Positions 18,891-58,415 of a stretch of 64,000 nucleotides of DNA are shown one piece after another. The stretch lies in the IMG/VR virus record IMGVR_UViG_3300027970_000021, positions 1 through 64,000 of that record; one strand, given 5' to 3'. The notes under the pieces were generated by a model, which was not told the origin of the DNA, ran no database searches, and worked only from the letters and a program-made list of their open reading frames with translations. A program made the translations under genes and the position numbers. This DNA comes from an uncultured virus (IMG/VR IMGVR_UViG_3300027970_000021). Taxonomy: Duplodnaviria > Heunggongvirae > Uroviricota > Caudoviricetes. Within the stretch, counting starts at the first letter, position 1, and the number at the start of each line of letters is the position of its first letter.

Positions 18891-20153
18891 TTAGTTTCCG
18901 ACCCTCTCGACGTTGAAATAAGTATTTGCAGTAGTTCCCGAAATTGTGAGTGTGCTTGCCGAGTTGTTTCCAAGGCCGTATAGGAAGATTTCAACGTAAT
19001 CCCCAGCATTCAACTGAAGCGTCGTGCTTCCATTGAACGCGTTGATTGTCGTTGCGGCAGATGTTCTGTACCCAAACAGACGAGCGGACGCTCCGTTTTT
19101 GTAGAGGTAAAGCCCGTAATCAGATGCGAGCACGTTAGCTGAGGCGAGCAGGACTGCGGAGCTTATGCGGTACTTACCCGATACGGGTGCAGTGAATCTG
19201 CTGTTTGCTGAGCTAAATGATCCGGTCGTGTCAAACACTGCGGAAGAAAAAGCTACCTTAACGAAACTATTATTCGTCGCGATCCCTGTTTGGTTAGACC
19301 CTCCAAGTGTTGCATCCATCGCGACTGTTTCACTCGCCGCGATCTGCGACGGGCCGGAGATACGCGAGATTGAGAAGTAGTTGTCAACAACACTACCTCC
19401 GACATTCAATGCTCCACCTGAGTTTTGGAAAACTTGAATCCCTACCGTGTCCCCTGCATTGAACAAATATTCTGTTGCACCATTCAAAAACGTACCTGCA
19501 GAAGCCGTAGGGTCGAATATGTATGCCAGTGTGCGGATATTGCTTCCGTTTACACGCAGACGAACCTCACGACCGTTCGTCGAGCTTGCGGCAAAACTTA
19601 CTTGAGTCGTAATCCTATACCAGCCGGGGACTGGAATCGTGTAGAGACTTGTACCGGTATTCCAAGCCCCGTGCGTGTCGCTGATTGCGGCATCGAACGC
19701 TACGAGTGTTCCGGTGCTGTCTGGAATTGACTGAGTGGCTGCGCGGCCTGTAGTCATTGCCACGACGCGAGTGTCCGTCTCAGACGACATCTGCACTTGA
19801 GACGACCATCCGGTGATGGGGACGAGGAAAGATCCGCCAAAAACCGTGTTGTTGGCCCAAGCCGTCCCTAACGTGCCATTGAAATAATTATCTGCCTGTT
19901 GGCTAATGATTGCGACCGTTGTTGGAGAACCTGTGGCTACGAGAATATTGCCTGACCATGGGGTTTTAGATGCGGTAAGCGCCCCCACAACAGAGTTGTT
20001 TACGGCTCTAGTTATGTCCATAGAAAGGCCGCTTGGCAGCGAAATAGAAACTGGTGATCCAGAATTTGTTCCAGAAGTAACTGTAAACATGACTTCAAGA
20101 GAATCACCTACGCGCCGATACTTGGCGATAGATGCAGAAACAGTTCCTAGGCC
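18891..20153. repeat. direct repeat copy 1 (~1.26 kb; identical core 19762-20153)
   Basis: Aligned by eye to 57153-58415 at constant offset 38262; weaker protein-level similarity continues to ~20700. Confidence 0.97.
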
Positions 20154-20831
20154 AACGTATGTCGGAGTGTAGCTCTGCCAGTCCGTGACTGGCGTTCCCT
20201 GCGTGATGATCTGCGGAGAGACGCGGACGTCGGATAGCGCCATCGTGTAGGCGGATGCCGACGTGCTGCCAACGTGGATACAGAGGCGGTAGCTGGTCGA
20301 GTTAGAGGCTGCCTGGAAAGTGCCTCTCCAACTTTGTTGAACAGTGGTGCTTTCAATCGAAGAAGGGGCCGGTTGAATCAAAATCGAGTTGGTAACATCG
20401 TAGATCCAGACCGAAAGATCGCTCGTGGCGTAAGTCCCGCTGACTACCTCGTAGGGGAACGTAATTTGCAGGACTTTACCTTTGTCGGAATTATCAATCG
20501 TGAATGCATTCGAGACCCCGTTGCCTTGCCGGTTGTTTGCATCCTTGACGAGGTTGAAGTCAGCTCCCGGACGAAGCGGCGTTGTGGTCGAGCGCGAGAT
20601 CGCAAACGTAGGGCTACCGCCCGTGCAATCGACCGGAGAGCTGGCTGCCGAATCAGCATACCCCGCCCATCCGAGAGTATCTTTTCTAGCGTAGGCGTTT
20701 TTTATGTAGTTGCGGGAAGAGCTTGATCCGCTGTCGAGGAAATCTGCATCTAAAAACCTAGGGGTTTGCGCAAACGTAGTGCTCGCCCCAAGGGCTGCCG
20801 CTGCCAGTAAGAGGCGTTTGAAAAATTTCAT
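18891..20831 (-). CDS. C1q/TNF-like tandem-domain adhesin with N-terminal signal peptide (chimeric at repeat)
   Basis: MKFFKRLLLAAAALGASTTFA signal-like start; two C1q-like domains (YTIPVPGWYRI, FTAPVSGKYRI, LNAGDYVEI); AAGGAG RBS. Confidence 0.75.
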   Translation of the reverse strand: MKFFKRLLLAAAALGASTTFAQTPRFLDADFLDSGSSSSRNYIKNAYARKDTLGWAGYADSAASSPVDCTGGSPTFAISRSTTTPLRPGADFNLVKDANNRQGNGVSNAFTIDNSDKGKVLQITFPYEVVSGTYATSDLSVWIYDVTNSILIQPAPSSIESTTVQQSWRGTFQAASNSTSYRLCIHVGSTSASAYTMALSDVRVSPQIITQGTPVTDWQSYTPTYVGLGTVSASIAKYRRVGDSLEVMFTVTSGTNSGSPVSISLPSGLSMDITRAVNNSVVGALTASKTPWSGNILVATGSPTTVAIISQQADNYFNGTLGTAWANNTVFGGSFLVPITGWSSQVQMSSETDTRVVAMTTGRAATQSIPDSTGTLVAFDAAISDTHGAWNTGTSLYTIPVPGWYRITTQVSFAASSTNGREVRLRVNGSNIRTLAYIFDPTASAGTFLNGATEYLFNAGDTVGIQVFQNSGGALNVGGSVVDNYFSISRISGPSQIAASETVAMDATLGGSNQTGIATNNSFVKVAFSSAVFDTTGSFSSANSRFTAPVSGKYRISSAVLLASANVLASDYGLYLYKNGASARLFGYRTSAATTINAFNGSTTLQLNAGDYVEIFLYGLGNNSASTLTISGTTANTYFNVERVGN

Positions 20832-20840
20832 ATCTCTCCT

Positions 20841-23800
20841 TTAGATTCCGTTACGAGCAATTTCGACAACTGCGGCAAGACCCGCATCCCAACGAAGACG
20901 AATGATGGAGCCCGCTTGCCCGCGCCAATCCCCCTGCAGGAGGACGGTCGAGGATGCGGCTAGGTCACAGTAGTTTGCGTTCGAGGTCCCGAGGATTTCA
21001 ATCTCAGCTCCGTCAACCATACTCGAGGTCGTGATCGTGAACGTCTGAGCCGAGCCCCCCGTGTACCTAAAGCGCTGTGCCGGAGAATTCGTGGGCGTAA
21101 TCGAGGAGCCGGTGAAGTTCGACTGATCGGGCGTCTTTGCTCCGCCGGTAGATAGCACCACATCCCAGCGCGTATCCGTCGTGTTGTAGACGAGCAGTGC
21201 GCCCTCGTTGAGCTTCAGCACGAGGTCCCGTGCCTGCGGGCAACGGATACGGTTTGCGGAAGTAGATCCCGCCCCCTGATGGCTGATCGTCACATCTGCG
21301 GTAGCGGACGTGTTCACAACCCATAGCATTCGCGGCGAACCGCCCCCTGAAATCCCACCAACTGTGCGTGCAGTGGCGGGAGCCAGACGGAACACGGTGA
21401 TTCCCGTTGAGGTTACGTCATCGGTTGTGCCGGTCGCGGTCGAGTCGTCTACGTCGATAGCGAGGGTGCCGTCTAAGTGCAGTGTCTCAGCCGGGGATGC
21501 TTTGTTGACGCCCATCCGCGAGGTCGCAGTCAGTGTAAGCATTTCGACCGGAGTCGTTGATGCGTCGGGCTTCACGAAGAATCCGAGATCGGCGCCCTTA
21601 CCGTTGGTTGTGCCGACTCCGCGCAGGATGGCGCGGATGTAGCCTACCAGGCGAGTACTGGCCGAAGGGGAAGTGCCGTTGTTAAGCGAGAAGAATTGCA
21701 GAATTCCTGCGATGTCGCTTGCTGCCGGGCTTGCGCGGTTGTTGCCGAGTGCTAGTGCGCCGTAGGAGTTCGCACCTGTCGCGTCGCCCATCACGTTCAC
21801 GCGGCCTTCGGTCGTAACCGCGGTGCCGATCGGATCATCGCTCGTCGGAGTGCTCCCGAGAGTTAGCCGGAAGTTTTTATACCAGCGGGCAATCTCGATG
21901 TTGTTCACCCGGAACGGGATTTTGAAATCATCGATCGTACCGAAGAACTTCTCAGCCAGCACCGTGTTGCCATCGAGCGTCCAACCGGATCCGCCGCCAG
22001 AGCCAGAGCCAGATCCGCCCACCACCTGCCAGCGGCTTGATGCGGTCTCGTAGTAAAGAATGACGGCGGCACCGTCGGCCATTGCTATGGCCGCGCCCGT
22101 TCCCGTGCGGATACGGTTTGCAGCGGTGCCGCCCGTGTCGTCGTTGAGGTTGACGGATGCGCCCGTGCGGTTGATGAGAACCAGGAACGTGGCATTTGGC
22201 GGCGCCGGAATCATGTCGATCGAAGTCAGCGACCCGTCGGTAACAAGCAAGCTCGTCTTGGTCGGAGTCGCAAGCGTGGCGTTTGCGCCGGTCGCGGCTG
22301 CGTCCGTCTGCTCAGATCCCTGAAGCGTTGCCAAGGCGCGCAGGGCTGCAACAAAGCTCTTAGCTCCGCCGAAACTCTGTGCCGCGGTGCTGACCGATCC
22401 GGGGTTGGTTGCGTCTGCCGGCTGAATCGTAAGGGTGTCTGCCACAAGCGTCGCGCCAGACGTGCCTGGAGTAGACCCAAAAGTCGCAAGCGAGAGGGAG
22501 CTTCCGCCAGCACCTTGGAAACTGCGCCAAGTGCCGCTCGTCATACAGAAGAAAAAGACTTTGGAGCCACTGGCCAGCGCAAAGGCAGCGTCGGCGGCAC
22601 CCGCGTCGATCGCCTCGCCCGAGGCCGGGAACACGTCGCAAGAGGCAGCGCCCGAGTTCTGCACGTAAAGCTGCATGCCCGCGACTGCCGCGGGGAGCTT
22701 GACTGAATCGTTTGCGGTGGCGCACACGCTCACGCGGTTTTGCTGTTTAGCAAGCTGGGTTGCGGAAGCCTGTCCGCCGCCCGCAAACGCGGTGATTGTG
22801 TCGGCAGCCGAGAACATCACGTAGGCTTGCGCAATGATGTTGTTTGCGAACGTCTTCACACCCGCGATCGTTTGCGCGATGGCGGTGAGTAACCCCGGCT
22901 GGGATCCGTCTGCCGGCTGCAGGGTGAGGACTTGGCCTGAGAGCGAGGCGCCGTTTGCAGAGGGGGAGCTGCCGACGGCTGCAAGCGACACATCGCCTGA
23001 GTTCGTTCCCGCGATGTCAGCGTCACTAGAGAAAGTCAGCGAACGCGCGGCGTTTTTGAGATCGATCGTGAGGTCACGATCGGCGTCCTGCGTGACGCTA
23101 CTCGTGAAAATGAAGCGCGAGAACCAAGACGTGGACGTTTCTTTGATCGAAACACCCGTCACGAATTTCTTCAAGCCCGCAATCAACTGCGTGAGAGTTG
23201 AGACGCCGCCGGGGTTGGTTGCATCTGCCGGCTCCATGTTTAGCACAGCACCAGAGAGCGTAAGGCCGTTTGCGTTCGGGGCCGTGCCAAATCCTTGCAG
23301 GGTGACGGTCGCGGGACCGGCAGGACCAACGGCGCCGGCAGGACCCGGGGGGCCTGCGATACCCAAGTACTCGGACGGATCACGCGCCTGCACGCCGGTA
23401 CCGTCATCTGAGATTGAGAGAACTTTACCGGCGTTGATTGCGAGGTCGGGGAAAGCCTTATCCCGATCAGGCGAGGTGGAACCAAAAAGTAGCGCCCGCC
23501 GCATGCGGCCGACCACTTCCTGTACTTGCTGCACGATACGATCAAGCGTGCGCTCGTTCGTCTCAGGCGGGAAGATCCCCGTCGAAATGTAATCCGTTTC
23601 CTGTGTGACGGGCGTCACTCGACGAACGAGTACGCGCTGCGTGGCGGTCGGAGTCGAAACTGTGACTACCGCACTACCAGGGTCGCCGCCCGAGATTGAA
23701 TACTGCCCGGGAGCTGTGAGCGTTGTCTCGGTGACTGCTGTCGGCACCGTGTAGTCGCGTAGGATGACTTGCACCTGCGAGTTGGCAGTGAACGCAAAGG

Positions 23801-23870
23801 GGATTGCGAATGAAGTCGTAACTCCGTCGCCCTGATAAATCTGCTCGGTCGTCGTGTTAGAGATCGTCAT
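20841..23870 (-). CDS. tail fibre protein (inner phage)
   Basis: T7 gp17-like N-terminus YQGDGVTTSFAIPFAF; short GPP collagen-like run; three internal repeats ending PAD..PG. Confidence 0.85.
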   Translation of the reverse strand: MTISNTTTEQIYQGDGVTTSFAIPFAFTANSQVQVILRDYTVPTAVTETTLTAPGQYSISGGDPGSAVVTVSTPTATQRVLVRRVTPVTQETDYISTGIFPPETNERTLDRIVQQVQEVVGRMRRALLFGSTSPDRDKAFPDLAINAGKVLSISDDGTGVQARDPSEYLGIAGPPGPAGAVGPAGPATVTLQGFGTAPNANGLTLSGAVLNMEPADATNPGGVSTLTQLIAGLKKFVTGVSIKETSTSWFSRFIFTSSVTQDADRDLTIDLKNAARSLTFSSDADIAGTNSGDVSLAAVGSSPSANGASLSGQVLTLQPADGSQPGLLTAIAQTIAGVKTFANNIIAQAYVMFSAADTITAFAGGGQASATQLAKQQNRVSVCATANDSVKLPAAVAGMQLYVQNSGAASCDVFPASGEAIDAGAADAAFALASGSKVFFFCMTSGTWRSFQGAGGSSLSLATFGSTPGTSGATLVADTLTIQPADATNPGSVSTAAQSFGGAKSFVAALRALATLQGSEQTDAAATGANATLATPTKTSLLVTDGSLTSIDMIPAPPNATFLVLINRTGASVNLNDDTGGTAANRIRTGTGAAIAMADGAAVILYYETASSRWQVVGGSGSGSGGGSGWTLDGNTVLAEKFFGTIDDFKIPFRVNNIEIARWYKNFRLTLGSTPTSDDPIGTAVTTEGRVNVMGDATGANSYGALALGNNRASPAASDIAGILQFFSLNNGTSPSASTRLVGYIRAILRGVGTTNGKGADLGFFVKPDASTTPVEMLTLTATSRMGVNKASPAETLHLDGTLAIDVDDSTATGTTDDVTSTGITVFRLAPATARTVGGISGGGSPRMLWVVNTSATADVTISHQGAGSTSANRIRCPQARDLVLKLNEGALLVYNTTDTRWDVVLSTGGAKTPDQSNFTGSSITPTNSPAQRFRYTGGSAQTFTITTSSMVDGAEIEILGTSNANYCDLAASSTVLLQGDWRGQAGSIIRLRWDAGLAAVVEIARNGI

Positions 23871-26800
23871 AGCGTAGGCTCCCCTTTTCGTTTCGCCCGT
23901 TGCTGGGTTTTAAGCATAGTTGATTCTTCGTCTTTTGAAATACCCATGATGGACCGAATTTGTGCACGCGCGTTTTCAACCACGTCACGGTCCACCGTTT
24001 GCCCAAGCGCGGTCGAGCGCGCAACTTGAGCACCCAAGAATTGTTCCCGGATATCCGGGAATTCCAGGAGTAGTTGTTGTTTTGCAGCGGCGCGGTACAT
24101 GCCCACCATTTCTGCAATGACGGTGCGTTTGTTTTCGTCGGTACGGTAGGCCTCCGGGATGCCGGGCTTCCCATCCAATTGCCGAGCGTAGTCGGATTTA
24201 ATGAGCGCCCCAAGCATGTCCTTAAGGTTTGGAACCTTTTGGTCCCGTTCCTTAGGTGCTTTTTTGATCTCATCGATCGAGCCAAGGCCGTGCCCCGCCG
24301 CAAGCTCTACAAATCGATTGTACTGCTCACTGGTTAGGTTCACGGGGAAGCTGTCTTTGCCGTCCACGTAGGCGAACGAGATATTGCGGGGAGGCATGTC
24401 CACCATGAGGTGGCTCTGCCCGGCAAGGGGCTTCGGCTTGACGAGCGGACCCGATACTCCCAGGCGAACAAGCTCTTCCCGGATGGGATCGTCTTTTGCA
24501 GGGGAGTACTTGAACGGGTTCACCAGGGCGATCGCGGAGAGGATCGCAGGGCCCGTTCCCTGCGGGTGTACAACCTCTTCACCGAAGAGGTTTAGCTGCG
24601 GCATGCCCACACCAAACGAAGCTTTCAGGGGCTTCACCACTGACTCCCAAGCGCCGTCCTGTGCCCCAAGCTTTGTGTCGATTTTCTTATCCCCAAAAGC
24701 TCTGTTTACTTGCTTGAACAGGTTGGGCGTAAGCGACGAGGCGAAGTTATCTGCCAGTTTTTTCCAAGCTGACGTGGGCGCACCGTCCCGAAGCAACTCG
24801 AGCACTTTTCCGAAATCGTCGGTGAGTACGTCGGGAACTGCCGCGGAGGCAATGTGCGCGGCCCCCGCAAGTGTGAGGTCTTCAAACCCCTGCATGTCCC
24901 CATCCGGGCTATCCCAGTAGGCTGCGAGCTCATGTAGATCGGCGGCAATACCGAGCAGGGTCCCTACGCCTCCCAAGGCTTGGTAAGAGAAATACCCGTC
25001 CCCAACCTTGATAGAGTTAGGTTGCCAGCCAGTGTCCTCGAGCGCTTTGCGCGCCTGCCAGTTTGTGGGACCGGCGCCCGTGATGACGCCCTCAACGGCG
25101 AGTAGCCCACCAAGCCCCAGCATCGACGTGCCTACTGCTACCTTACCGAGCGCTACGTCCCGAGCGGTACCGCCGGAAGCCATCGCTTCCTTGAATCCGG
25201 GGGTGAGCATCGCAAGGCCAGGGAATCGCTGCAACACTTGATCCGTTTGGTTGATGTTGATTTTGGTAAACGGAACCAGCATGCGGAACATCGGGTTCTG
25301 CGAGATTCCGTCGTATAATTTTGTGAATATCTCCGGGGTGTAGTTCAGCGTGCGCTGCCCCGCCTCACGCGCGGCCATCATGTTGATGTGTGCCGGCGGG
25401 AACTGCGTCATCTCCTTCACCATTTTTGTGTAGGCATCGCCCGTAAGGCCCGCTGCCCGGGCGGTGCGAACGGCAAGAGCGTTGGTTTGCATGCGATAGA
25501 TCGTAGCCTTAGATGCTACGTCGGCGGCGTTCAGCGCACGCCCAGGAATACGAATTCCAGAGCCGATGAAATCCATCGCGTCGGCCCAGACGCCATGCAG
25601 CCCGTTGGCGGCGCCAGTCAAAGTAGAGGGACGCTCAAGCGCCATCAGCTTCGAGCCGCCCGCAGTTAGAAGGGGATCGCTCGTGCGCCACGCCTTGAAG
25701 TAAGCAATCCAACCTTCCTTGAGGCCCTGCCCAAGCGACAGCACCGTAGCGTTAGACTCGGCGAGTGAAACGGCCTCACTTTGCACCTTGTTTGCAAACG
25801 CCGTGTAGGTTGCGTCAATCTCTTCCGCTGGCATCCCACCGAAGAAAGACGAAAGTTCATCCACACTAAGACGTGTGGCAGGGTTACCTTTGCCGCCTAC
25901 GATTGAGCGCATTTTCTGGACAGCCCAAGCCGCGTACTTCTCGGGGATTAATCCAATGGTGTTCACCAGGTTGTTGGCGACGTTTACGGTCTGCGTGAGC
26001 GGCCCGGAAAGTAAGCTCATAACCCGCAGCTCTTCGCCCATCGCTGCGAGGTGCCCAAGTCTCGAGCGATTACTCATCCAGGAGAAGTGCTTCACCTTCT
26101 CTGCGGGGGACATCCTAGACATCATGTCCACGATTGTTGCCGCTTGCTTCTGAATCTGCTCCTTACCGCCAGCGACGGTAAGCACGTCCTTTGCAGCGAA
26201 CATCTCTGCAACGGGGAACGCAGTCACATTCGACAAGTCCGCCGCACGCGTGGCAAGACCGGCTTCCTTTGTCCCGGCTTTAAACAACGCCATGGAATCA
26301 AGCGTGAGCATCTTCGATCTCTCGAAAGCAGCAATTACCTCATCGCTCGCATTCGGAGCAGCGGCAGCTATCGCTTTCTCAACACTGTCCTGCACGGCGT
26401 TAACAAAGAAAATTCCAGCACCTTTTACCTCAACGGCATTCCACCCTTGGCCAGGCACCTTAGTAGTAAGCCGGCTAACATCTTCGCCGAGGAGCTTGAA
26501 CGCATCAGCAAGTACCGACTCATCGCTAACAACTCCGCGAGCAATCGTCTCAAAGCCTTCCTTGTTCGCGGCTACAATATTTGAAACCACGCGGCGGAAG
26601 TCATCGACAGACCCCATCGTGGGCACGTTATCTAGATTGAACCGCTTCGTGGCCTCGGTCGCCGGAGCCTGCAATTCTTCTAGGCTGAGCATACGCAAGT
26701 TCTGCGCTTGGCGCATTACCGTGGGCTGCTCAACTACCCGGGCTGCGTCGAGAACACCACGCCCTTCGGCCACTGCAGCGGAAACCGCAGATGCGTCTGC

Positions 26801-27811
26801 CGTGATTGTCTCCCCGCCCGAGTTTACAAGGGTGTGCCCTCGCGCGGTCGCTGCCGCATCCAGGGGAGCCTCAGTTGCACCTTCCTGGGCTGCCTTACTT
26901 GCAATGGCTTGCGCCTCGTCAACCGAAGGGGCAATTGCCTGCCCGGCCTTATCGACGGCAGTGTTTTCTGCAGTGACCTTTACTTCCGTCTTTGCCGCAG
27001 CTCCGGCGGCGCCCTCAGCAACTTCAGTGCCTACTTTGGAGACGCCTCGGAAGGATTTGTAGACCTTCATTGCGCCAACAAAAACTCCGGCAAGTGCGGC
27101 GTCGCCCACGATGCTCGTGACGAAGTTTTTGAAGCGGCCTTCGGCCTCGGTGTCAGTTTCCTTGGCTGCCCAGTAATCGACAATTCCGTTCTGGAACATC
27201 GGGAATCGCTGAACAAAGTTAGCGATATTCCCCTCGTGCGGGTCGGCCGTAAAATAAGAAGATACGCCTGCAGCGGCAGCGCTGGCCCCCACAGAAACAA
27301 TCCCAGGTGCAGCCATAGCCGCAGCGCCTACGCCTGTTCCAATCGCGGTCGCAAACTGGGTTACAAACTTCCCAGCTCCCCGGAATGCACGCTCTGTGTC
27401 GGTCGTAGACGGGGGAGCCAGGTCTTTGCCAAACGTGAACACACGATCGTCATCGATCAAATCTGTTTCTTTGATCCCGGTGGTCGTAAGCCAGTTATCG
27501 ACCGAGTTGATGAGATCATGCCCGGCCTGTACAGCACCACGTGCGACATCTACCGCACCTGCGGCAAACTGCTTCATCGGTTTCCCGCCGGACAATTCAT
27601 CCGCGCGGGTAGCCACACCCGAGAGCTCATTTGCAGGGGGGGTTGCCTTTGGGGCGGGCCCCTCCTGCGGCTGCTGTTTTGCAAGCAGTTCGTCTGCCGG
27701 AGCTCCGAAAATATCTTTCTCGAGTTGAGAGATTCGGTTGTCTTGTGACCCCGCAATTTCACGGTCTAGTGCGTAGCCGCGTTCCATCGGAGACAGATTT
27801 GTCGTATCCAT
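23867..27811 (-). CDS. large internal virion / ejection protein (inner phage)
   Basis: ~1314 aa Ala-rich helical; ITGAGP...GWQPNSIKVGD..FSY motif; start 27811 overlaps upstream TAA. Confidence 0.75.
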   Translation of the reverse strand: MDTTNLSPMERGYALDREIAGSQDNRISQLEKDIFGAPADELLAKQQPQEGPAPKATPPANELSGVATRADELSGGKPMKQFAAGAVDVARGAVQAGHDLINSVDNWLTTTGIKETDLIDDDRVFTFGKDLAPPSTTDTERAFRGAGKFVTQFATAIGTGVGAAAMAAPGIVSVGASAAAAGVSSYFTADPHEGNIANFVQRFPMFQNGIVDYWAAKETDTEAEGRFKNFVTSIVGDAALAGVFVGAMKVYKSFRGVSKVGTEVAEGAAGAAAKTEVKVTAENTAVDKAGQAIAPSVDEAQAIASKAAQEGATEAPLDAAATARGHTLVNSGGETITADASAVSAAVAEGRGVLDAARVVEQPTVMRQAQNLRMLSLEELQAPATEATKRFNLDNVPTMGSVDDFRRVVSNIVAANKEGFETIARGVVSDESVLADAFKLLGEDVSRLTTKVPGQGWNAVEVKGAGIFFVNAVQDSVEKAIAAAAPNASDEVIAAFERSKMLTLDSMALFKAGTKEAGLATRAADLSNVTAFPVAEMFAAKDVLTVAGGKEQIQKQAATIVDMMSRMSPAEKVKHFSWMSNRSRLGHLAAMGEELRVMSLLSGPLTQTVNVANNLVNTIGLIPEKYAAWAVQKMRSIVGGKGNPATRLSVDELSSFFGGMPAEEIDATYTAFANKVQSEAVSLAESNATVLSLGQGLKEGWIAYFKAWRTSDPLLTAGGSKLMALERPSTLTGAANGLHGVWADAMDFIGSGIRIPGRALNAADVASKATIYRMQTNALAVRTARAAGLTGDAYTKMVKEMTQFPPAHINMMAAREAGQRTLNYTPEIFTKLYDGISQNPMFRMLVPFTKININQTDQVLQRFPGLAMLTPGFKEAMASGGTARDVALGKVAVGTSMLGLGGLLAVEGVITGAGPTNWQARKALEDTGWQPNSIKVGDGYFSYQALGGVGTLLGIAADLHELAAYWDSPDGDMQGFEDLTLAGAAHIASAAVPDVLTDDFGKVLELLRDGAPTSAWKKLADNFASSLTPNLFKQVNRAFGDKKIDTKLGAQDGAWESVVKPLKASFGVGMPQLNLFGEEVVHPQGTGPAILSAIALVNPFKYSPAKDDPIREELVRLGVSGPLVKPKPLAGQSHLMVDMPPRNISFAYVDGKDSFPVNLTSEQYNRFVELAAGHGLGSIDEIKKAPKERDQKVPNLKDMLGALIKSDYARQLDGKPGIPEAYRTDENKRTVIAEMVGMYRAAAKQQLLLEFPDIREQFLGAQVARSTALGQTVDRDVVENARAQIRSIMGISKDEESTMLKTQQRAKRKGEPTL

Positions 27812-29388
27812 TATTGTGCATCCTTCGCGTGTACTTCCAACGCCTGCTGCCAGTCTCCGTAAAGGCGCACGCGGCGCTCCCATTCAGAGGCGCCAAATTG
27901 ACGGATGATTTCCTTCTTCTGCTGAAGCAACGTGGATTTTACCGCATCCATGTTGTTTGCACGCATGGAATCCCGGCCGATACCGGGTAGGGGAGGAAGA
28001 GATTCCGGGGCTCCGATCATCTGTCGAAGCGCCTTGCGCGCCGCGGGCACGGGATCTACACCCTGCTCCATGTACTCGTTGCGTTTGTTGATGACTTCAG
28101 CTGCAAGGCGTTCCTTGTCGGCGTTGCCACCCATTTTAGTTGCAAAATCAAACTGACCACGAGATCCCGTAACGGTAGCGTTGATGATATCGTTAGATAC
28201 CTGCACCTGGCGTTTGAACGCGGGGTCTGCCTGTTTTTCTTTCGACGCTGTTTTAGCTGCGCGCAACAACCGCTCGGTGGTCTCACGCGTAAGTGTACCA
28301 TCATCGAAAGACTTCATAATGTCTTTTTGAATTTTAGACCCCGACTCGCCTTTAAGAATTCGACTGGTGTAGTTCACGCTTGCGCGCGATTCCATCTCGC
28401 CAGAAACATCCTTGGCCTCGGCCTGCAGCCGGTTGTATCCCTCGGGGCTTATCAACCTTTGCTTGAGTAAATCTTGCGCTTGTTGCAGCATAACGTCACG
28501 CTGCGCAGGCGAGGTGGCGGCAGCGACACCCGCAAAAAGTGCGGAATCGTTATTTTGCACCACTTGCTCATAGGCTTCTTTGCGCTTCTTTTCAGCTTGC
28601 TCTTTTTCATCAAGCACGCGATTCGTGTATTGCAGCTTTGTCACGGCAATCTTCTCAGAGAGTTTGTTGATATGCGCGGCATCCTTAGCGTAAGGCGCAA
28701 GTTTTTGTAGGGCCGCTTCCGCTTCCGAGAATTTCTTTTGCCCAATGAAACCGTTGACGGCGGTATCGACAAGCGACGCTTGATCATCAACTTTTATCTG
28801 CTCGCGCACAGGTGCGGTGTATAGCCCTGTGAGCTGATCAACTTCCTTATTGTTTTTTTCGATCTCCTCAATAGCGGCGTCGGGGGCGCTTAAAATCCGC
28901 GACGCCCGTGACGCGTAATTGGCCCTACGCGCGCGATCTAGTGCCTCGGGACCACGACGCGTAACATCAGCGTACACGTTGGCGGCGTAAGAGTTTTTAG
29001 CAGCGCCAAGTACATTCTTTGCTTCGGCAGCGATGTTGCCACCAAGTGCATCGATTTCCTTGGTGATCTCCTTTACTTCATCGTCGTATTTTTTCTGGTA
29101 CAGCTCAAGCATGTCGGAGCCATCGTCTTTGGCTTCCTTACCGGCGGCAGCAAACGCTTTCTGTTTTGCCTCTGTACCTGCGTTTTCCACGCGCCCAAGG
29201 AAAATCTTTTTCTCCTCAGTGTCTTTGACCTTGAAGTAATCCTGCAGATTCGCCGCGGTCTTTACGAGATCGTTGCCAAACCCAGCAACAGCCTCACCCT
29301 GCGTGCGAGCGCCGCTCGTGCCTCCAATGGGGACAGGCGAGGATACTTGCAGGCGAGTGGCTTGGTCCTGTAGCGGGATACGCGGCAT
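27811..29388 (-). CDS. internal virion protein (inner phage)
   Basis: MPRIP N-terminus, helical 525 aa, middle of three-gene ejection cluster. Confidence 0.7.
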   Translation of the reverse strand: MPRIPLQDQATRLQVSSPVPIGGTSGARTQGEAVAGFGNDLVKTAANLQDYFKVKDTEEKKIFLGRVENAGTEAKQKAFAAAGKEAKDDGSDMLELYQKKYDDEVKEITKEIDALGGNIAAEAKNVLGAAKNSYAANVYADVTRRGPEALDRARRANYASRASRILSAPDAAIEEIEKNNKEVDQLTGLYTAPVREQIKVDDQASLVDTAVNGFIGQKKFSEAEAALQKLAPYAKDAAHINKLSEKIAVTKLQYTNRVLDEKEQAEKKRKEAYEQVVQNNDSALFAGVAAATSPAQRDVMLQQAQDLLKQRLISPEGYNRLQAEAKDVSGEMESRASVNYTSRILKGESGSKIQKDIMKSFDDGTLTRETTERLLRAAKTASKEKQADPAFKRQVQVSNDIINATVTGSRGQFDFATKMGGNADKERLAAEVINKRNEYMEQGVDPVPAARKALRQMIGAPESLPPLPGIGRDSMRANNMDAVKSTLLQQKKEIIRQFGASEWERRVRLYGDWQQALEVHAKDAQ

Positions 29389-29855: not shown

Positions 29856-29858
29856 CCC

Positions 29859-34167: not shown

Positions 34168-35109
34168 TTAGGCTTCGGTGCAGAGGATACCGACGACTTT
34201 AGTCTCTTCCAGGCGAACAGCGCCACAAGTCATGCTCGCGTACACTTGCTTGGAGTAGGACTTGTCGGCGCGCTCGTCGATCCGGCCTTTGATCTCGGAA
34301 CCGCTCGCAAGAACGATACCGCTTTCGGCCCAAGCAAAACACCGGCGGGTGTTGTTGCCGTTACCCGTCGAGAGCGTGACCGCGCCCGTGGTGGTGTTGA
34401 TCGAGGCAAGGAAGCCGCCAGCGCCGGCCGTACGCAAGAGTTGCGTGCGGTGGAACTTGAAGCCCATGAACGTGTCCACTTCGCCGTGCACAAGCGCCTT
34501 GATGGCGTTGTAATCGGCAGAGGTGACTTGGTTCTCGCCCAGGAGACCGTCGATCTGCTTCTGCGAAACCGCAATGTGCAGCATCTCGTTCTCGTCCACG
34601 TCGGCCTGCCCGAAGAGCGACTTGACCTTGATCAAGGTCGCGACGTTCAGGTTCGACACGGCCGTCGAAGCCACGGCACCGACGTACTGTGCTGCCAGTT
34701 GAGCTTGAGTGCTGTCGCCTTCTTTACCAGTGATGGCCGAGCCAAGAGCTGCGTCGATGATCTCAAGATCCATCGCGCGGCCAAGAGCCCAGGCTGCCGA
34801 CATCGCGTAGGGGCTGGTAGGATCGATGAGAGCGCGGATGCGATCTTCCTTGTCGATCAAGTCGGCCCATTCGTAGTCGTTCATCTTCACGCCACGACGG
34901 CTGTGATCCGAGTTCACCAAGGGGGTGTCGGAATGACGGCCGACTTTCTTGATGGCGCTCGTGGGTCCGAGGCGGTCGTAGAAATCGACTTCGGCGTTCT
35001 GGACTTCGTTGCGCACGAAGGGACGCAGACGCGAGCCCTTTTGTTGCGCGAGGTGGAAAATGTTGTCAGAGAAGCCCTTTACAAAGGCTTGCGGGTACAG
35101 ATTCGACAT
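34168..35109 (-). CDS. major capsid protein (inner phage)
   Basis: LAQQKGSRLR, SADYNAIKALVHGEVDTFMGFKF, GAVRLEETKVV; after scaffold; AAGGAG RBS. Confidence 0.9.
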   Translation of the reverse strand: MSNLYPQAFVKGFSDNIFHLAQQKGSRLRPFVRNEVQNAEVDFYDRLGPTSAIKKVGRHSDTPLVNSDHSRRGVKMNDYEWADLIDKEDRIRALIDPTSPYAMSAAWALGRAMDLEIIDAALGSAITGKEGDSTQAQLAAQYVGAVASTAVSNLNVATLIKVKSLFGQADVDENEMLHIAVSQKQIDGLLGENQVTSADYNAIKALVHGEVDTFMGFKFHRTQLLRTAGAGGFLASINTTTGAVTLSTGNGNNTRRCFAWAESGIVLASGSEIKGRIDERADKSYSKQVYASMTCGAVRLEETKVVGILCTEA

Positions 35110-45045: not shown

Positions 45046-45414
45046 ATGGAAATCAGTGCAAATGAAATTGAAATCAACGGCCAAAAGTACGTGAAGAAAG
45101 GCACACAGTCGCAGGCAACATCGCCTGAAGGACTTCCCTACGTCATCATCCGCAGCGAGGGGGCTGGCGTCTTTGCCGGTTACTTGAAAGAGCAGAATGG
45201 TCAGGAAGTCGTGATCCTTGAGTCTCGTCGTCTTTGGTATTGGTCTGGTGCCGCATCGCTCAGTCAGCTTGCCATTGACGGTACATCGAAGCCCAAAGAC
45301 TGCAAGTTCCCCGAGGCTGTGTCGTCACAGAAGATTTTCAAGGTGCTTGAGATCATCAATGTGACCCAGAAAGCAAAAGACTCGATTGCGAGCGTGAAGC
45401 CGTGGCAACTGTAG
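45046..45414 (+). CDS. conserved phage protein (DUF6948-like)
   Basis: YVIIRS..AGVFAG...SRRLWYWSGAASLSQLA.DG; AAGGAG RBS. Confidence 0.7.
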   Translation: MEISANEIEINGQKYVKKGTQSQATSPEGLPYVIIRSEGAGVFAGYLKEQNGQEVVILESRRLWYWSGAASLSQLAIDGTSKPKDCKFPEAVSSQKIFKVLEIINVTQKAKDSIASVKPWQL

Positions 45415-45623
45415 AGGTTGATTCCGGCTCCGGCGACGGCTCCGGCGACGGCTACGGCTACGGCTCCGGCGACGGCGACGGCTCCGGCTACGGCTCCGGC
45501 GACGGCGACGGCTCCGGCTACGGCGACGGCTACGGCTCCGGCTACGGCGACGGCTCCGGCGACGGCGACGGCTCCGGCGACGGCGACGGCTACGGCTCCG
45601 GCTACGGCGACGGCTACGGTTGA
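45402..45623 (+). CDS. Gly-Asp/Ser/Tyr dipeptide-repeat protein
   Basis: ORF of GS/GD/GY dipeptides overlapping the DUF6948-like stop. Confidence 0.55.
   Translation: MATVEVDSGSGDGSGDGYGYGSGDGDGSGYGSGDGDGSGYGDGYGSGYGDGSGDGDGSGDGDGYGSGYGDGYG
45425..45619. repeat. hexamer mosaic repeat (GGCTCC/GGCGAC/GGCTAC)
   Basis: About 32 tandem GGCNNC units read directly. Confidence 0.9.
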
Positions 45624-45657
45624 TCTATGAAAACTTTTCGCAAAGCCTCCAGCAACC

Positions 45658-46368: not shown

Positions 46369-46374
46369 TCCGGT

Positions 46375-48812: not shown

Positions 48813-48828
48813 AGTGGGTGGAGCGGCA

Positions 48829-50301: not shown

Positions 50302-50310
50302 GGAGCGGAC

Positions 50311-50781: not shown

Positions 50782-50788
50782 GGAAGAA

Positions 50789-51577: not shown

Positions 51578-51585
51578 GTAACGTT

Positions 51586-51622
51586 GGGGCCCCTGGGGGT
51601 AAGGGAACAGGGGCCCGTTTTT
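51586..51622 (+). terminator. possible intrinsic terminator
   Basis: GGGCCCCTG...CAGGGGCCC then GTTTTT. Confidence 0.45.
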
Positions 51623-51638
51623 ACTAAAGAGGGCATGT

Positions 51639-52406: not shown

Positions 52407-52612
52407 TGCATACGAAAAATCTGAAACAACAACCTGCCCGCAAGGGGAATACTCCCCGCCGCAAACCGCTAACGGTCCGTATCGATCGCACGCTACACGA
52501 CTTTGTGACCCGCTCAGCACATGCCAAGGGCGAGTGCGTGGCCGTGACGGTCTCGCGCATCTTAAAGTCCTACCAGCGGAGCGTCGGCCGCGCGAAGGCA
52601 CTGCACGCGTGA
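52406..52612 (+). CDS. small ribbon-helix-helix-like protein
   Basis: LTVRIDRTLHD....A...G; TGATG and GTGA overlaps. Confidence 0.5.
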   Translation: MHTKNLKQQPARKGNTPRRKPLTVRIDRTLHDFVTRSAHAKGECVAVTVSRILKSYQRSVGRAKALHA

Positions 52613-54441: not shown

Positions 54442-54754
54442 GTCAGAGAAGGCGTTTGCAGCGAGGGTCAGAAAAGAAATCGAGGCGATGCCCCGTACGT
54501 GGTGCTTTAAGCCCTTCACCGGCTCGGTACGTGGGATCCCGGATCTCATTTGCTGTGTGTCCGGGTGGTTTGTGTCGCTTGAGTTCAAGAAAGCCGGCGC
54601 TGCCAAGGACTCATCGAGAGAGAGGCTGCAGGAATATGTGGCCTCAAAGATTCGGTTTGCGGGGGCGCCCATTGCTGAGCACCGTGTGACCCCGGCTTCC
54701 TGGCCTGCGATTCGCGAGCGGCTTGTGCAAATGGCGGGAGAGACTTTCTCTTAA
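54428..54754 (+). CDS. VRR-NUC / Holliday junction resolvase-like nuclease
   Basis: ESEK...GIPDLI....G.FV.LEFK...LQ PD-(D/E)xK pattern. Confidence 0.85.
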   Translation: MRRPESEKAFAARVRKEIEAMPRTWCFKPFTGSVRGIPDLICCVSGWFVSLEFKKAGAAKDSSRERLQEYVASKIRFAGAPIAEHRVTPASWPAIRERLVQMAGETFS

Positions 54755-55179
54755 AGCCTGCGGTAATCGTAGTAGTCTTTTGAGAAGCACTTGATTCCGC
54801 TCATTTTCCAGATGTCGTCAACTCCGATGCGCTCCTCGACTTCGACCCGCTTGATACAGGCACCTAGGAAAGTGCGCATGCACTTGTACGTGTGGTGGAA
54901 AATGCAGGGAGCGTCCGCACAAAACAGGTAGCGCTTATCCGCAAACTTGCAGACGAAATCAGCACTGCGAAGCGTGCTACGCAGGAACGCGTCCTCTAGA
55001 TCAAGCTTCCGGTACTCAAGCTTTAGGCAGTCGGTGCCTTTGACTTCCGAGCACCGGGTTGTGACAAGGCCCTTCTCGCTCTCGGATGCAATAAAGATTT
55101 GCCGCACGAGATCCGGGAACTGCGTGATGGATCTCTCGGTTGCACATGCGGTAAAGAAAAGGGCCAGCAGGTATTTCAT
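54751..55179 (-). CDS. Cys-rich putative lipoprotein in lysis cassette
   Basis: MKYLLALFFTA-C lipobox-like start; many Cys. Confidence 0.6.
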   Translation of the reverse strand: MKYLLALFFTACATERSITQFPDLVRQIFIASESEKGLVTTRCSEVKGTDCLKLEYRKLDLEDAFLRSTLRSADFVCKFADKRYLFCADAPCIFHHTYKCMRTFLGACIKRVEVEERIGVDDIWKMSGIKCFSKDYYDYRRL

Positions 55180-55460
55180 TTCGTGAGCTCAAGCCCAGCC
55201 GAGAGGTACTTGTTGAGCGCTGCCTCTTCGACCTTCAGTAGATCGTAGAGCTCAGCGATCAGAGCCATGTCCTGCTTATCTTGTTTCTTTTCTTCCGCCA
55301 AAATGTCCATCTGCACTTTACGCCAGCGCTCGATCGGCTCACGCTTGAGCTTGACCAGCCCCTTCTCGGCAAAAATCTCGATGATCGAGAGCGCCGTGTT
55401 GAGTGCCGTCATGCCCGGGATGAGCGAATCCGTTGCTGGCAGGGGTACAACAATGTCCAT
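55176..55460 (-). CDS. hypothetical helical protein
   Basis: 94 aa; ATGA overlap with lipoprotein. Confidence 0.5.
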   Translation of the reverse strand: MDIVVPLPATDSLIPGMTALNTALSIIEIFAEKGLVKLKREPIERWRKVQMDILAEEKKQDKQDMALIAELYDLLKVEEAALNKYLSAGLELTK

Positions 55461-55466
55461 GGCAGC

Positions 55467-55607
55467 TTAGGCTTTGCCGAGGAATTTCTTCAGGCCGTTG
55501 ATGACAAGCTGAACAATGCTGTTTGACTTGAAGGCCGGGATCAAAGCAAGAGCTTCAGACACCGCGAGAAGCGCACCGAGAATGAGAGCGATCGTCGAAT
55601 TTTCCAT
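55467..55607 (-). CDS. 46-aa holin-like membrane protein
   Basis: Manual translation MENSTIALILGALLAVSEALALIPAFKSNSIVQLVINGLKKFLGKA; directly after endolysin. Confidence 0.65.
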   Translation of the reverse strand: MENSTIALILGALLAVSEALALIPAFKSNSIVQLVINGLKKFLGKA

Positions 55608-55624
55608 TTTGTTCCCCCGAAACG

Positions 55625-56119
55625 CTAGGTTTTCCTAGCTACCCAAGGATCCAGGAACCCCACAATGGAGAACCTTGGAAACCCTTTTAAGTTACGCTTG
55701 ACACGATAGACCCCATCGCCGTCCGAATCAAGGCCGGAAGGGTTTACATTTCCCTCGACCGTCAAAAAATTACCCTTGCGATCGGGCGAGGTCTCAACGA
55801 TGCCGGCATGCCCGCGCCCTGAGTCATCCGTTCGCTTCCAAATGATGATGCGCCCGGGGCTGGCCTCTTTTCGCTGGTAAAGCTTGTTGCGATTCCAGAG
55901 GGTGAGGCAGTGCTCTGAAAATTGGATGTGATCCAGGCCCGACTGCTCGGCTACTTTCTGCAGGACAGTGCACACAAACGCTGCACACCAAGGCTCGCCC
56001 TGCGCCACGCCGTCTACCGTCTTCTGGAAGCCTTCAATGATGTCGCCGGCATTGGCGCCTGACTCGTGGACGCCGAGATAGATTCTAGCCATGTTCACGG
56101 TTGCTAGGTGCAGATCCAT
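55625..56119 (-). CDS. CHAP-domain endolysin
   Basis: PWCAAFV, GHAGIV, TVEGN catalytic motifs. Confidence 0.88.
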   Translation of the reverse strand: MDLHLATVNMARIYLGVHESGANAGDIIEGFQKTVDGVAQGEPWCAAFVCTVLQKVAEQSGLDHIQFSEHCLTLWNRNKLYQRKEASPGRIIIWKRTDDSGRGHAGIVETSPDRKGNFLTVEGNVNPSGLDSDGDGVYRVKRNLKGFPRFSIVGFLDPWVARKT

Positions 56120-56406
56120 TAGCGTATCCGCTTCAGCTCTCCGCTGATCTCGCCCAGCTTACGATTCATGTCTTGGAGGGTTGCCTGCAACCGTTCCTCT
56201 TTATCATCTAGCCGGGTTTCGATCACGCCAAATCGAGTGACACTTGCGGCCTGCGCCTCGGCCTGGGCGTACTTCAGCGTGTTGATGTCGGCTCTAAGCA
56301 TCGTAAACCAAATCGTACACGGGATCACGACGGCGCTTAGAAACCAAACCAGGCCTCGGAGCAGTTGCCCCGAAACCCCTGCGATCTTGTTGTGCCATTC
56401 GGCCAT
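56119..56406 (-). CDS. membrane protein with coiled coil (holin/antiholin-like)
   Basis: One hydrophobic helix then coiled coil; TAATG overlap with endolysin. Confidence 0.55.
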   Translation of the reverse strand: MAEWHNKIAGVSGQLLRGLVWFLSAVVIPCTIWFTMLRADINTLKYAQAEAQAASVTRFGVIETRLDDKEERLQATLQDMNRKLGEISGELKRIR

Positions 56407-56409
56407 GAG

Positions 56410-57153
56410 CTATCCCCCGCAGACAGCCATTCTAAACGGATTTTTCGGATCGCGGTAGTAGCCTTTGACCCAGTTTTCTCGTGGCCCGCGGTTTGTTTCA
56501 TGCACTTTTATGCAGCCATCAATCCACGCTTTCCCCCACCAGGGGAGCTTCACTTTCCGTAGGAATTTGATGCGGAGATCAGCCAGCCCCCAGTTTTTTG
56601 AGAGCCGCAGCCCTAGCCCCAGCCAGAGAAGCGAGATCGGATCGGGCTCCTCACCTGCTGCCAGCTCAAGGATTGCCCAGTCACCAGGCTGAAGCATCTC
56701 AGTCCACGACCAACGTCCGGGATCGCGGGGGTTGTACTGAAACCAGTGCTTGCGCCCATACTCGAGAATCGCCCAGGCATGCCCTGAATTGTAGTGGTGC
56801 GAGAGGATTGCAAGCGACACCACGTTGTCGTGCGACTGCCCGATGTCAAGCGGCACGAGGTCGCCTTCTGCATTCTCAAATCTGAGCTCGTGCCCAGGCC
56901 ACCGCCCGTGGAGCCCCGGCTCAATCTCAGTCAGCTCCATGTGGCGCTTAAAAGCCAGGAACCCTTCCACTGATCTCGCCTCCGGGTCAAGCTCAAGGAG
57001 CCCCTGCGCCAGCGCGTAGCTCGCGTTCTCGTTGGTTGAGCGCACAGGATATTTCGGACTCAACGGGGGAGCTAGGTTGCCCGGCTCATCTTCAAACAAA
57101 CCCCCGCCATCGGGAGCAATGTAGCGCTCGACGAAGGCGGAGAGGTGGTCCAT
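56410..57153 (-). CDS. hypothetical helical protein
   Basis: 247 aa; start overlaps the fibre stop codon (TAATG). Confidence 0.6.
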   Translation of the reverse strand: MDHLSAFVERYIAPDGGGLFEDEPGNLAPPLSPKYPVRSTNENASYALAQGLLELDPEARSVEGFLAFKRHMELTEIEPGLHGRWPGHELRFENAEGDLVPLDIGQSHDNVVSLAILSHHYNSGHAWAILEYGRKHWFQYNPRDPGRWSWTEMLQPGDWAILELAAGEEPDPISLLWLGLGLRLSKNWGLADLRIKFLRKVKLPWWGKAWIDGCIKVHETNRGPRENWVKGYYRDPKNPFRMAVCGG

Positions 57154-58415
57154 TAGTTTCCGACCCTCTCGACGTTGAAATAAGTATTTGCAATAACTCC
57201 CGAAATTGTGAGTGTGCTTGCCGAGTTGTTTCCAAGGCCGTATAGGAAGATTTCAACGTAATCCCCAGCATTCAACTGAAGCGTCGTGCTTCCATTGAAC
57301 GCGTTGATTGTCGTTGCGGCAGATGTTCTGTACCCAAACAGACGAGCGGACGCTCCGTTTTTATATAGGTAAAGCCCGTAATCGGATGCGAGCACGTTCG
57401 CGGAGGCAAGTAGGACTGCAGCACTTACGCGATACTTACCTGACACCGGGGCCGTGAACCGACTATTGCCGGAGCTAAACGATCCAGTTGTATCGAAGAC
57501 TGCGGAAGAGAAGGCCACCTTAACGAAACTATTGTTCGTTGCTACTCCTGTTTGGTTAGCCCCTCCAAGTGTTGCATCCATCGCGACTGTCTCACTGGCC
57601 GCGATCTGCGATGGGCCGGAGATTCGGGAGATGGAGAAGTAGTTGTCAGCAACACCTCCTCCGACGTTTAATGCTCCACCTGAGTTTTGGAAGACTTGAA
57701 TCCCTACCGTGTCCCCTGCGTTAAACAAATATTCTGTTGCACCATTCAAAAACGTACCTGCAGAAGCCGTAGGGCCGAATATGTATGCCAGTGTCCGGAT
57801 ATTGCTTCCGTTTACACGCAGACGAACCTCACGACCGTTGGTCGAGCTTGCGGCAAAAGCTACTTGAGTCGTAATCCTATACCAGCCAGGGACTGGAATC
57901 GTATAGAGACTTGTACCGGTATTCCAAGCCCCGTGCGTGTCGCTGATTGCGGCGTCGAAAGCTACCAGTGTTCCGGTACTGTCTGGAATCGACTGAGTGG
58001 CTGCGCGGCCTGTAGTCATCGCTACGACGCGAGTGTCCGTCTCAGACGACATCTGCACTTGAGACGACCATCCGGTGATGGGGACGAGGAAAGATCCGCC
58101 AAAAACCGTGTTGTTGGCCCAAGCCGTCCCTAACGTGCCATTGAAATAATTATCTGCCTGTTGGCTAATGATTGCGACCGTTGTTGGAGAACCTGTGGCT
58201 ACGAGAATATTGCCTGACCATGGGGTTTTAGATGCGGTAAGCGCCCCCACAACAGAGTTGTTTACGGCTCTAGTTATGTCCATAGAAAGGCCGCTTGGCA
58301 GCGAAATAGAAACTGGTGATCCAGAATTTGTTCCAGAAGTAACTGTAAACATGACTTCAAGAGAATCACCTACGCGCCGATACTTGGCGATAGATGCAGA
58401 AACAGTTCCTAGGCC
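57153..58415. repeat. direct repeat copy 2 (identical core 58024-58415)
   Basis: Matches 18891-20153 at offset 38262. Confidence 0.97.

Follow-up and report, generated by a model that had tools for sequence, protein, structure and literature searches.

The "phage inside a phage" in this metagenomic record is likely to consist of two separate lake-water phage genomes that the assembler stitched together through the fibre tip they share. The BclA_C/C1q fibre tip itself is really exchanged among three different phages. The window analyzed here comprises the first 64,000 nucleotides of the 70,060-bp record.

Repeat pair and gene content of the two genomes

Self-BLAST of the whole 70,060-bp record reveals one direct repeat pair, 18890–20204 and 57152–58466, of 1,315 bp and 94.1% identity, with an offset of 38,262 and without gaps. 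The 1,315 nt contain 77 mismatches, which serve as diagnostic sites, and two exact blocks of 392 and 165 bp; beyond the repeat, weaker homology (55–72%) extends up to ~20700/58960. The GC content of the repeat is 0.51. The sequence-only reading had given the same offset and the same 392-bp core (19762–20153), and only its length of ~1.26 kb has to be replaced by 1,315 bp, a trivial difference. The 165-bp exact block is absent from that earlier description. A search of the 70,060-bp record for terminal repeats, up to 200 nt in length, was negative. The relevant features are as follows (strand given where assigned):

1–18889: outer left flank, with tail and structural genes, an HNH endonuclease, and the 67-aa and 89-aa genes
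18685–18888, minus strand: 67-aa gene directly downstream of copy 1; GC 0.37, outer-phage type
18890–20204, minus strand: repeat copy 1 (self-BLAST), encoding residues ~210–646 (the tip) of the 646-aa fibre ORF, up to the stop codon
18891–20831, minus strand: 646-aa fibre ORF, with a podovirus-type N-terminal part and the shared BclA_C/C1q tip (Pfam)
18936–19100 (= 57198–57362): exact 165-bp block, the other candidate switch point, flanked by mismatches at 18935 and 19101
19762–20153 (= 58024–58415): exact 392-bp block, candidate switch point, flanked by mismatches at 19761 and 20154
20205–57151: inner-genome DNA outside the repeat, from an HTVC010P-like podovirus whose structural, replication and lysis gene sets are complete (PHROGs, portal match)
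20841–23870, minus strand: 1,009-aa inner fibre/tail protein whose N-terminal domain is T7 gp17-like; the 646-aa ORF follows directly downstream
56410–57153, minus strand: 247-aa gene directly downstream of copy 2; in the third phage, a homologue with 72% identity comes after the same fibre tip
57152–58466, minus strand: repeat copy 2, encoding residues ~513–949 of the 949-aa fibre ORF
57153–60002, minus strand: 949-aa fibre ORF, with an outer-phage-type N-terminal part and the shared tip (Pfam)
58467–64000: outer right flank, with the fibre N-terminal part, the 164-aa gene, homing endonucleases and a capsid gene; it runs on to 70,060 in the record

The GC content is 0.42 in 1–18889, 0.56 in 20832–57151 and 0.43 in 60003–70060. 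Among the inner genes, PHROGs recognizes those for terS, terL, portal, a protease-like protein, capsid, tail tube A and B and internal virion proteins, together with a T7 gp17-like fibre, a primase-helicase, a helicase, PolA and an endolysin. The inner phage measures 38.3 kb with a GC content of ~56%, and the map of the outer phage (GC ~42%) closes at ~85.6 kb. The sequence-only reading had claimed two different phages, with a complete gene set including a capsid gene in the GC-richer DNA between the copies and a second capsid gene in the AT-richer flank. Both are present, the latter at 62041–63093, and the GC contents and the gene sets, each with its own capsid gene, agree with that description. 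When 24.8 kb of inner sequence were compared by megablast with 50,697 phage records, nothing matched. The PHROG tail and tail-fibre families match residues 1–129 of the 1,009-aa protein, and the 247-aa protein matched no Pfam or PHROG family; its Atlas scores do not exceed 0.85 (alpha/alpha-toroid leading) and its structural comparisons reach a TM of at most 0.41. The Rfam scan of the 64-kb window at gathering thresholds returned no matches, which gives no support to the idea that a group I intron interrupts the capsid gene.

A fibre tip shared by three phages

Both fibre ORFs score above the curated Pfam cut-offs for BclA_C (46.3 bits in the 646-aa ORF, with a cut-off of 38, and 45.9 bits in the 949-aa ORF) and for C1q (42.3 bits, with a cut-off of 23.7, and 38.5 bits), and the shared stretch is, as had been proposed, the C-terminal adhesin part of a fibre gene. 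The tip is a putative receptor-binding module composed of two BclA_C-like domains and one C1q-like domain. Over 607 aa the two ORFs share 87% identity, and from residue 210/513 onward they hardly differ, few residues being altered by the 77 differences in 1,315 nt. The N-terminal part of each ORF has its matches among fibres of the corresponding lineage; that of the 949-aa ORF matches the fibres of outer relatives that adjoin a homologue of the 164-aa gene. Exchange of the copies at either exact block keeps both the 949-aa and the 646-aa ORFs, 38,262 being a multiple of 3. Looping out at the repeat restores two sensible genomes with both junction ORFs at full length, and these two claims of the sequence-only reading are borne out.

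A third phage (L009) carries ~1.5 kb with 100% identity to copy 1, spanning the 392-bp block. This phage, classified as an integrase-bearing provirus, lies in a metagenome contig of 140.6 kb (Ga0247843_1000200); its tip was confirmed in a run from which both other phages are absent, by an assembly with k=31. As judged from these sequences, what we see is that unrelated phages living in one lake have recently exchanged a fibre-tip cassette by homologous recombination. The tip identity of 94–100% implies that the transfers are very recent, and the exchange implies a shared host or receptor; since one carrier is a provirus in a 140.6-kb contig, it offers a route to the common host. The three tip-sharing phages differ in family, GC content and lifestyle, and the shared tip appears to be a clean natural example of a very recent exchange of a receptor-binding module.

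Origin of the two hybrid junctions

In the explanation that we favour, the outer and the inner phage would be independent, complete genomes, each with a near-identical 1.3-kb tip at the 3' end of its fibre gene. The exact blocks of 392 and 165 bp would merge the two circular maps into a figure-eight in the short-read assembly graph, and the sole walk using each edge once would lead from the outer left part through the repeat, once around the inner genome, again through the repeat and into the outer right part, which is the contig. We infer that the assembler, rather than the cell, made both hybrid junctions. What is expected of such a figure-eight was found, namely exact shared sequence at both junctions, unequal depth, a repeat depth equal to the sum, and each partner on its own.

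Logan depth is a single mean per contig, and Logan k=31 contigs are interrupted at the exact blocks. In run X1, which may be the source, the outer flank has depths of 13.6 (6,167-nt contig) and 15.4 (8,096-nt contig) and the inner genome has 45.2 (25,023-nt contig), whereas the 392-nt block forms a separate contig with a depth of 59.5, to be compared with 15.4 + 45.2 = 60.6. The copy-2 alleles at 19662–19791, where all 31-mers are allele-specific, have a depth of 43.7, leaving ~16 for copy 1 by subtraction; a full cointegrate population should give equal allele depths. Further left, the alleles have depths of 26.1 and ~34, and the match to the two-genome depths is only partial. GC bias could widen the depth contrast between inside and outside but not the allele contrast, the allele sets having the same GC content. 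Binned depths are ~1.2 (outer) and ~4.7 (inner) in X12 and ~2.8 and ~6.9 in X10, uncovered parts in X12 and X13 not being counted as absence beyond these figures. The inner:outer ratio is thus ~2.5–3.8 in all three runs measured with both phages, which places at least 59–74% of the inner copies outside any outer genome. Of the 14 listed runs with half or more of the sampled words, 12 contain both phages. The sequence-only reading had proposed the comparison of depth inside and outside the insert as a check; it yields a roughly threefold difference that varies between runs, contrary to an equal-depth cointegrate.

Between the exact blocks, different runs and samples show different allele combinations. 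The X10 Logan contig 19642–20402 agrees with the record without differences, combining copy-1 alleles, the 392-bp block and the inner N-terminal part, and X10 thereby shows yet another allele combination, as compared with X1 and the third phage. The 100% identity of the third phage across the 392-bp block would suggest a switch within the 165-bp block; the X1 allele depths point instead to the 392-bp block, and both blocks are kept as candidates. Loose read ends at 18890 and 20204 were also considered as parental junctions; they correspond to the copy-2 flanks outside the 20-kb reference and are neutral evidence.

The nested layout occurs in three records (G000, G001 and Ga0247834_1000163) whose unique parts share 99.99% identity; a single sampling campaign may have yielded all three, and they are therefore not independent. 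In Ga0247834_1000163 (124,122 bp), for which a terminal overlap of ~238 nt is predicted by arithmetic, the layout is as in the present record, and the repeat copy in position 1 has the copy-2 allele at every one of the 67 sites that lie between the exact blocks, and the copy-1 allele at the 3 + 7 sites beyond the blocks. Each partner is also found alone: an inner-only contig (L011; 25.3 kb, 100% identical) ends at 20340 and an outer-only contig (L033; 21.8 kb, 99.97% identical) ends at 59061. An outer-outer or inner-inner junction is found on no contig in the collections searched. In all six outer relatives examined, out of 46 loci, the homologues of the left and right flanks are contiguous with no podovirus genes between them, and the contigs of thirteen outer relatives measure 67.8–85.7 kb, none being longer among the matches listed.

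Real nesting can be envisaged in two forms. In a sub-population, up to all outer copies, homologous recombination in the tip during co-infection could insert a circular or concatemeric inner genome, the contig then being a true molecule beside an excess of free inner phage. We regard this as unlikely. It has in its favour that the layout is exactly what a single crossover would give, with both junction ORFs open, that exchange at the tip locus is real, as the ~1.5 kb of the third phage identical to copy 1 demonstrates, that runs differ in how the alleles between the exact blocks are combined, and that three records have the nested layout; moreover, the depths leave room for up to all outer copies (~15 of 45 in X1), corresponding to about one third of the inner copies. 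On the other hand, the three records are near-identical and not independent, the phasing of the repeat differs between assemblies, and the allele depths beside the 392-bp block fit the phasing of two genomes, 16 going with the outer and 44 with the inner one. The joined molecule of 124 kb would amount to 144% of the outer (~85.6 kb) and 324% of the inner unit length, and by the general limits of phage capsids such a molecule would probably not be packageable as a unit. Still less probable is that every outer genome stably holds the inner phage as a nested resident, free inner phage arising by excision. The excess of inner over outer depth in all three runs with both phages and the co-occurrence in 12 of the 14 listed runs would be consistent with a stable resident, but the outer-only contig stops 595 nt before the repeat instead of running into inner DNA, six of six outer relatives have no insert, the contigs of the listed relatives end at ~86 kb, indicating a size limit, and both the unequal allele depths and the alternative phasing argue against it.

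Arrival of the inner genome by site-specific integration or transposition can be practically dismissed. Phage_integrase (PF00589) and Resolvase (PF00239) gave no matches at E <= 1 in the six frames of the record, while the positive controls matched; this is the profile search that the sequence-only reading, which had recognized no tyrosine or serine recombinase, called for. No integrase or transposase family was found among the 67 ORFs scanned with PHROGs. Short direct repeats of the att type were not found at the ends of the inner genome, the sole repeat being the 1.3 kb of homologous coding sequence, which is unlike a short att site or a target-site duplication. The physical, reversible cointegrate of the sequence-only reading is not supported, in view of the threefold depth gap, the unequal alleles, the different phasing and the contiguous flanks in the relatives, none of those listed exceeding ~86 kb; its stated alternative, an assembler joining two co-occurring phages through their identity, is the one favoured by the evidence. 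The unequal and run-dependent coverage is the coverage half of the refutation proposed in that reading.

Nesting matters only if it is physical, and the evidence points against this; a true cointegrate would be cross-family phage recombination caught in the act in a natural lake community. With two separate genomes, the public data contain at least three records (of 70, 104.5 and 124 kb) in which the sum of two phage genomes appears as one virus, which inflates the genome size and mixes two host signals. The CheckV completeness of the joined records is 91–100%, and figure-eight joins pass the usual checks because all genes stay intact.

Comparison with known systems

Among nested mobile elements, such as a prophage in a prophage or a virophage in a giant virus, a complete viral genome interrupts a gene, as it does here on paper. 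Such elements rely on integrases together with short att sites and are stably maintained, whereas here there is no recombinase and, by depth, most inner copies are free. Among the 10 papers shown of 41 listed by a literature search, no title or abstract opening describes a phage cointegrate formed via fibre genes. The inner phage itself resembles the HTVC010P-type pelagiphages in genome size (~35–38 kb) and in its T7-like structural module, its portal being 44–45% identical over 90–92% of the length to those of HTVC034P, HTVC204P and HTVC010P. It differs from them in its freshwater origin and its GC content of 56%, and, as a candidate of this type, it is only distantly related; an RNA polymerase was not recognized among the inner genes by PHROGs.

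A highly similar region shared by co-existing viruses is named as a cause of chimeric viral metagenome contigs (PMC5610896). As in such contigs, the shared region here is longer than the assembly word, and the parts are unequal in depth with the repeat at their sum. Unlike their end-to-end join, one partner here is a complete loop, giving a clean insertion with intact junction genes. Path extension of the SPAdes type would walk simple loops once.

Finally, the tip itself has its counterpart in modular fibre-tip exchange, of which the fibres of T-even phages, P2 and Mu are the classical examples. Here, too, lineage-specific N-terminal parts are combined with a common C-terminal tip, in the third phage as well, and each type keeps the context of its lineage, a gp17-like gene being next to the 646-aa type and, in outer relatives, the 164-aa gene next to the 949-aa type. 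What is special to the present case is that the partners differ by 14 GC points, in size (38 vs. ~86 kb) and in lifestyle.

Two gene sets and their shared fibre tip

The window covers positions 1–64000 of a linear virus record of 70,060 bp. Self-comparison of the 70,060-bp record by BLAST reveals a single repeat pair (18890–20204 and 57152–58466) of 1,315 bp, 94.1% identical, ungapped and at an offset of 38,262. The two copies differ at 77 sites, leaving two exact blocks (19762–20153, 392 bp, and 18936–19100, 165 bp), and homology of 55–72% runs on beyond the repeat to about 20700/58960. The GC content changes from 0.42 (1–18889) to 0.56 (20832–57151) and back to 0.43 in the right flank, the repeat itself being at 0.51. 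Copies 1 and 2 form the tips of a 646-aa and a 949-aa fibre ORF, respectively, both of which end in BclA_C and C1q domains with scores exceeding the Pfam cut-offs; they share 87% identity over 607 residues and are nearly identical from residue 210/513 on. Swapping the copies at either exact block leaves both ORFs full length. Between the copies lies a full podovirus gene set, whose portal is 44–45% identical to that of HTVC010P-type pelagiphages, and the flanks carry a distinct structural module.

Features of the inner (podovirus) and outer genomes
Inner 38.3 kb: terS, terL, portal, protease-like protein
34168–35109: inner capsid
Inner 38.3 kb: tail tube A and B, internal virion proteins
Inner 38.3 kb: 1,009-aa protein with a T7 gp17-like N-terminus
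Inner 38.3 kb: primase-helicase, helicase, exonuclease, PolA, endolysin
Record end: outer portal, truncated
62041–63093: outer capsid gene
Flanks: outer 1,659-aa protein, several homing endonucleases

The search for recombinases proposed along with the sequence-only reading found no match to Phage_integrase or Resolvase in six frames of the record. Together with the repeat, the gene sets and the intact junction ORFs, this bears out the description given there of a podovirus nested in the fibre gene of another phage.

Additional features were observed in both genomes. A tandem array of 12- and 18-nt units at 45387–45644 (+), in which a 90-nt reference recurs in 13 register copies, encodes a Gly/Asp/Ser/Tyr-rich run directly after a DUF6948 gene. 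A similar array, about 70% identical, is found in the unrelated podovirus contig L014, and the array seems to be where the inner-only contig L011 breaks off (computed end about 45646). The outer capsid gene (62050–63730, −) looks interrupted: compared with the 407-aa capsid protein of a relative, residues 15–60 map to 63593–63730 (78%) and residues 61–405 to 62050–63090 (75%). The intervening stretch of about 500 nt contains a GIY-YIG-like ORF of 106 residues (63200–63520), a LAGLIDADG-like ORF (63748–64476) lies directly upstream of the gene, and no group I intron was matched there at Rfam gathering thresholds. Four homing-endonuclease-like ORFs (HNH, 461-aa homing endonuclease, GIY-YIG-like and LAGLIDADG-like) cluster in the outer structural module, at 17776–18411, 60547–61932, 63200–63520 and L001 3748–4476.

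Origin of the nested layout

The stretch was found in 14 lake-water metagenome runs, four of which were placed on 9000–28999 as Logan contigs. The comparison of depth between the inner genome and the outer flank gave unequal values in three of them.

Depth of the outer and inner parts
X1 (possible source): outer flank 13.6 and 15.4; inner 45.2; ratio about 3.0
X12: outer about 1.2 (bin mean); inner about 4.7 (bin mean); ratio 3.8
X10: outer about 2.8 (bin mean); inner about 6.9 (bin mean); ratio 2.5

As a cointegrate needs one outer copy per inner one, at least 59–74% of the inner genomes are free in these runs. In X1 the 392-bp block stands alone as a contig of 392 nt with a depth of 59.5, outer plus inner adding up to 60.6, and the contig over 18890–19100 stands at 61.3. 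GC bias could be suspected behind the difference between inner and outer parts, but a comparison of alleles within the repeat is independent of it: in X1 a contig with copy-2 alleles at 19662–19791, where each 31-mer spans a diagnostic site, has a depth of 43.7, leaving about 16 for copy-1 alleles; these values equal the inner and outer depths, where a pure cointegrate would give equal ones. Further to the left, the copy-1 contig over 19071–19491 has a depth of 26.1, so that the match of alleles to the two genomes is imperfect. In X10, one contig links copy-1 alleles, the 392-bp block and the inner N-terminal part, with copy-2 alleles at 19513 and 19533. Taken together, the patterns in X1 and X10 indicate that allele combinations vary. 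Loose contig ends at 18890 and 20204 were also considered as junction evidence and discarded, since they are merely flanks of copy 2 and uninformative on junctions.

Two further assemblies, the IMG/VR record G001 (104,527 bp) and the metagenome contig Ga0247834_1000163 (124,122 bp), hold both copies with the same spacing. Both match the window at 99.99% identity in their unique parts; they represent the same strains and therefore no independent replication. The position-1 copy of Ga0247834_1000163 carries copy-2 alleles at 67/67 sites lying between the exact blocks; at the 3 + 7 sites outside them its alleles are those of copy 1. The stretch between the blocks is thus phased differently among assemblies. 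G001 adds 43.2 kb to the left flank (GC about 0.40), and the outer-only record G002 (21,761 bp, 99.97% identical) adds 10.8 kb to the right flank; over 133 nt its end overlaps with the start of G001 (95% identity). Excluding the inner part, the outer map closes at about 85.6 kb; including it, at 123,884 bp. The 238-nt excess of Ga0247834_1000163 over the latter would be a terminal overlap. Thirteen contigs of outer relatives span 67.8–85.7 kb, none being longer. In all six loci examined of 46, homologues of right-flank (capsid, 164-aa) and left-flank genes (89-, 516-, 149-, 126- and 418-aa) lie together around a fibre gene, and none of the intervening genes is of podovirus type. Three outer-phage assemblies (starts of G001 and G002, computed ends of Ga0247834_1000163) break in one stretch of about 130–240 nt, which may mark a physical end of the genome, a terminal repeat or a site that varies.

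The nested layout is most probably two free phage genomes joined by assembly. Two closed maps with common exact blocks give a figure-eight in a short-read graph, in which the sole walk taking every edge once runs from outer through repeat, inner loop and repeat back to outer. This reading, which had been the alternative offered earlier, is favoured by the unequal depth of the parts with the repeat at their sum, the allele depths tracking the two genomes, the variable phasing, the separate inner-only and outer-only contigs ending before the repeat, the contiguous flanks in outer relatives, and the size of a joined molecule, which would amount to 144% of the unit length of the outer phage. Depth, allele depths, phasing and contiguous flanks also disfavour the reversible phage–phage cointegrate proposed first. 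A sub-population of real cointegrates is improbable; as a minority it is conceivable, since exchange of this tip among phages does occur, and the measured depth would permit every outer copy to be one. The depth data derive from Logan contigs, and the parental junctions (outer–outer or inner–inner) are on no contig in the collections searched.

Exchange of the fibre tip

With the layout probably due to an assembly join, what is real is a cassette of BclA_C-like and C1q-like domains forming the fibre tip, with one boundary at the stop codon of the gene and the other near 20204–20460. Few residues are altered by the 77 nucleotide differences, which indicates that both copies are under selection. 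The same tip is carried by a third phage, L009 (= G003), a 34,523-bp IMG/VR record classed as provirus (GC 0.58) with a tyrosine integrase at G003:97–558, located at about 71.5–106.0 kb (computed coordinates) of a 140,601-bp metagenome contig. Its portal (38% identical) and capsid (32%) show it to be distantly related to the outer phage. Between about 20460 and about 18950 the DNA encoding its 644-aa fibre matches copy 1 at 100% identity, one site excepted; past about 18950 it agrees with copy 2 and runs on into a 247-aa gene homologue (72% protein identity). Run X13 is without both window flanks and covers 18890–20600 by a single 18,367-nt contig (depth 19.1) with the L009 pattern; this mosaic is therefore real. 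A module boundary within the inner fibre gene is observed at 20452–20481: alleles change from 20460 in L009, X13 and Ga0247834_1000163, and an X1 contig matches only right of 20452, its sequence differing to the left.

Regarding possible hosts, the outer capsid matches in only one of 50,697 phage records (29.7%), its sole cultured relative, which infects Silvanigrella. Prophage-like regions in the chromosome of Bdellovibrio sp. HCB288 (L082) and in a Bdellovibrionales MAG (L083) keep the gene order (portal 36–43%, capsid 30–39%, C1q-type fibre 33–36%), with fibres 33–37% identical adjoining outer-type portal and capsid genes. These regions provide a possible, not conclusive, pointer to the hosts that the outer lineage can infect.

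The cassette has been transferred very recently, through homologous recombination, among three phages: the 38-kb podovirus, the 86-kb phage and a temperate relative of this 86-kb phage. A common tip would imply a common receptor and, probably, a common host, which the bacterial flanks of the L009 provirus contig could identify. The sharing of this tip is a new example of an already known kind of exchange.
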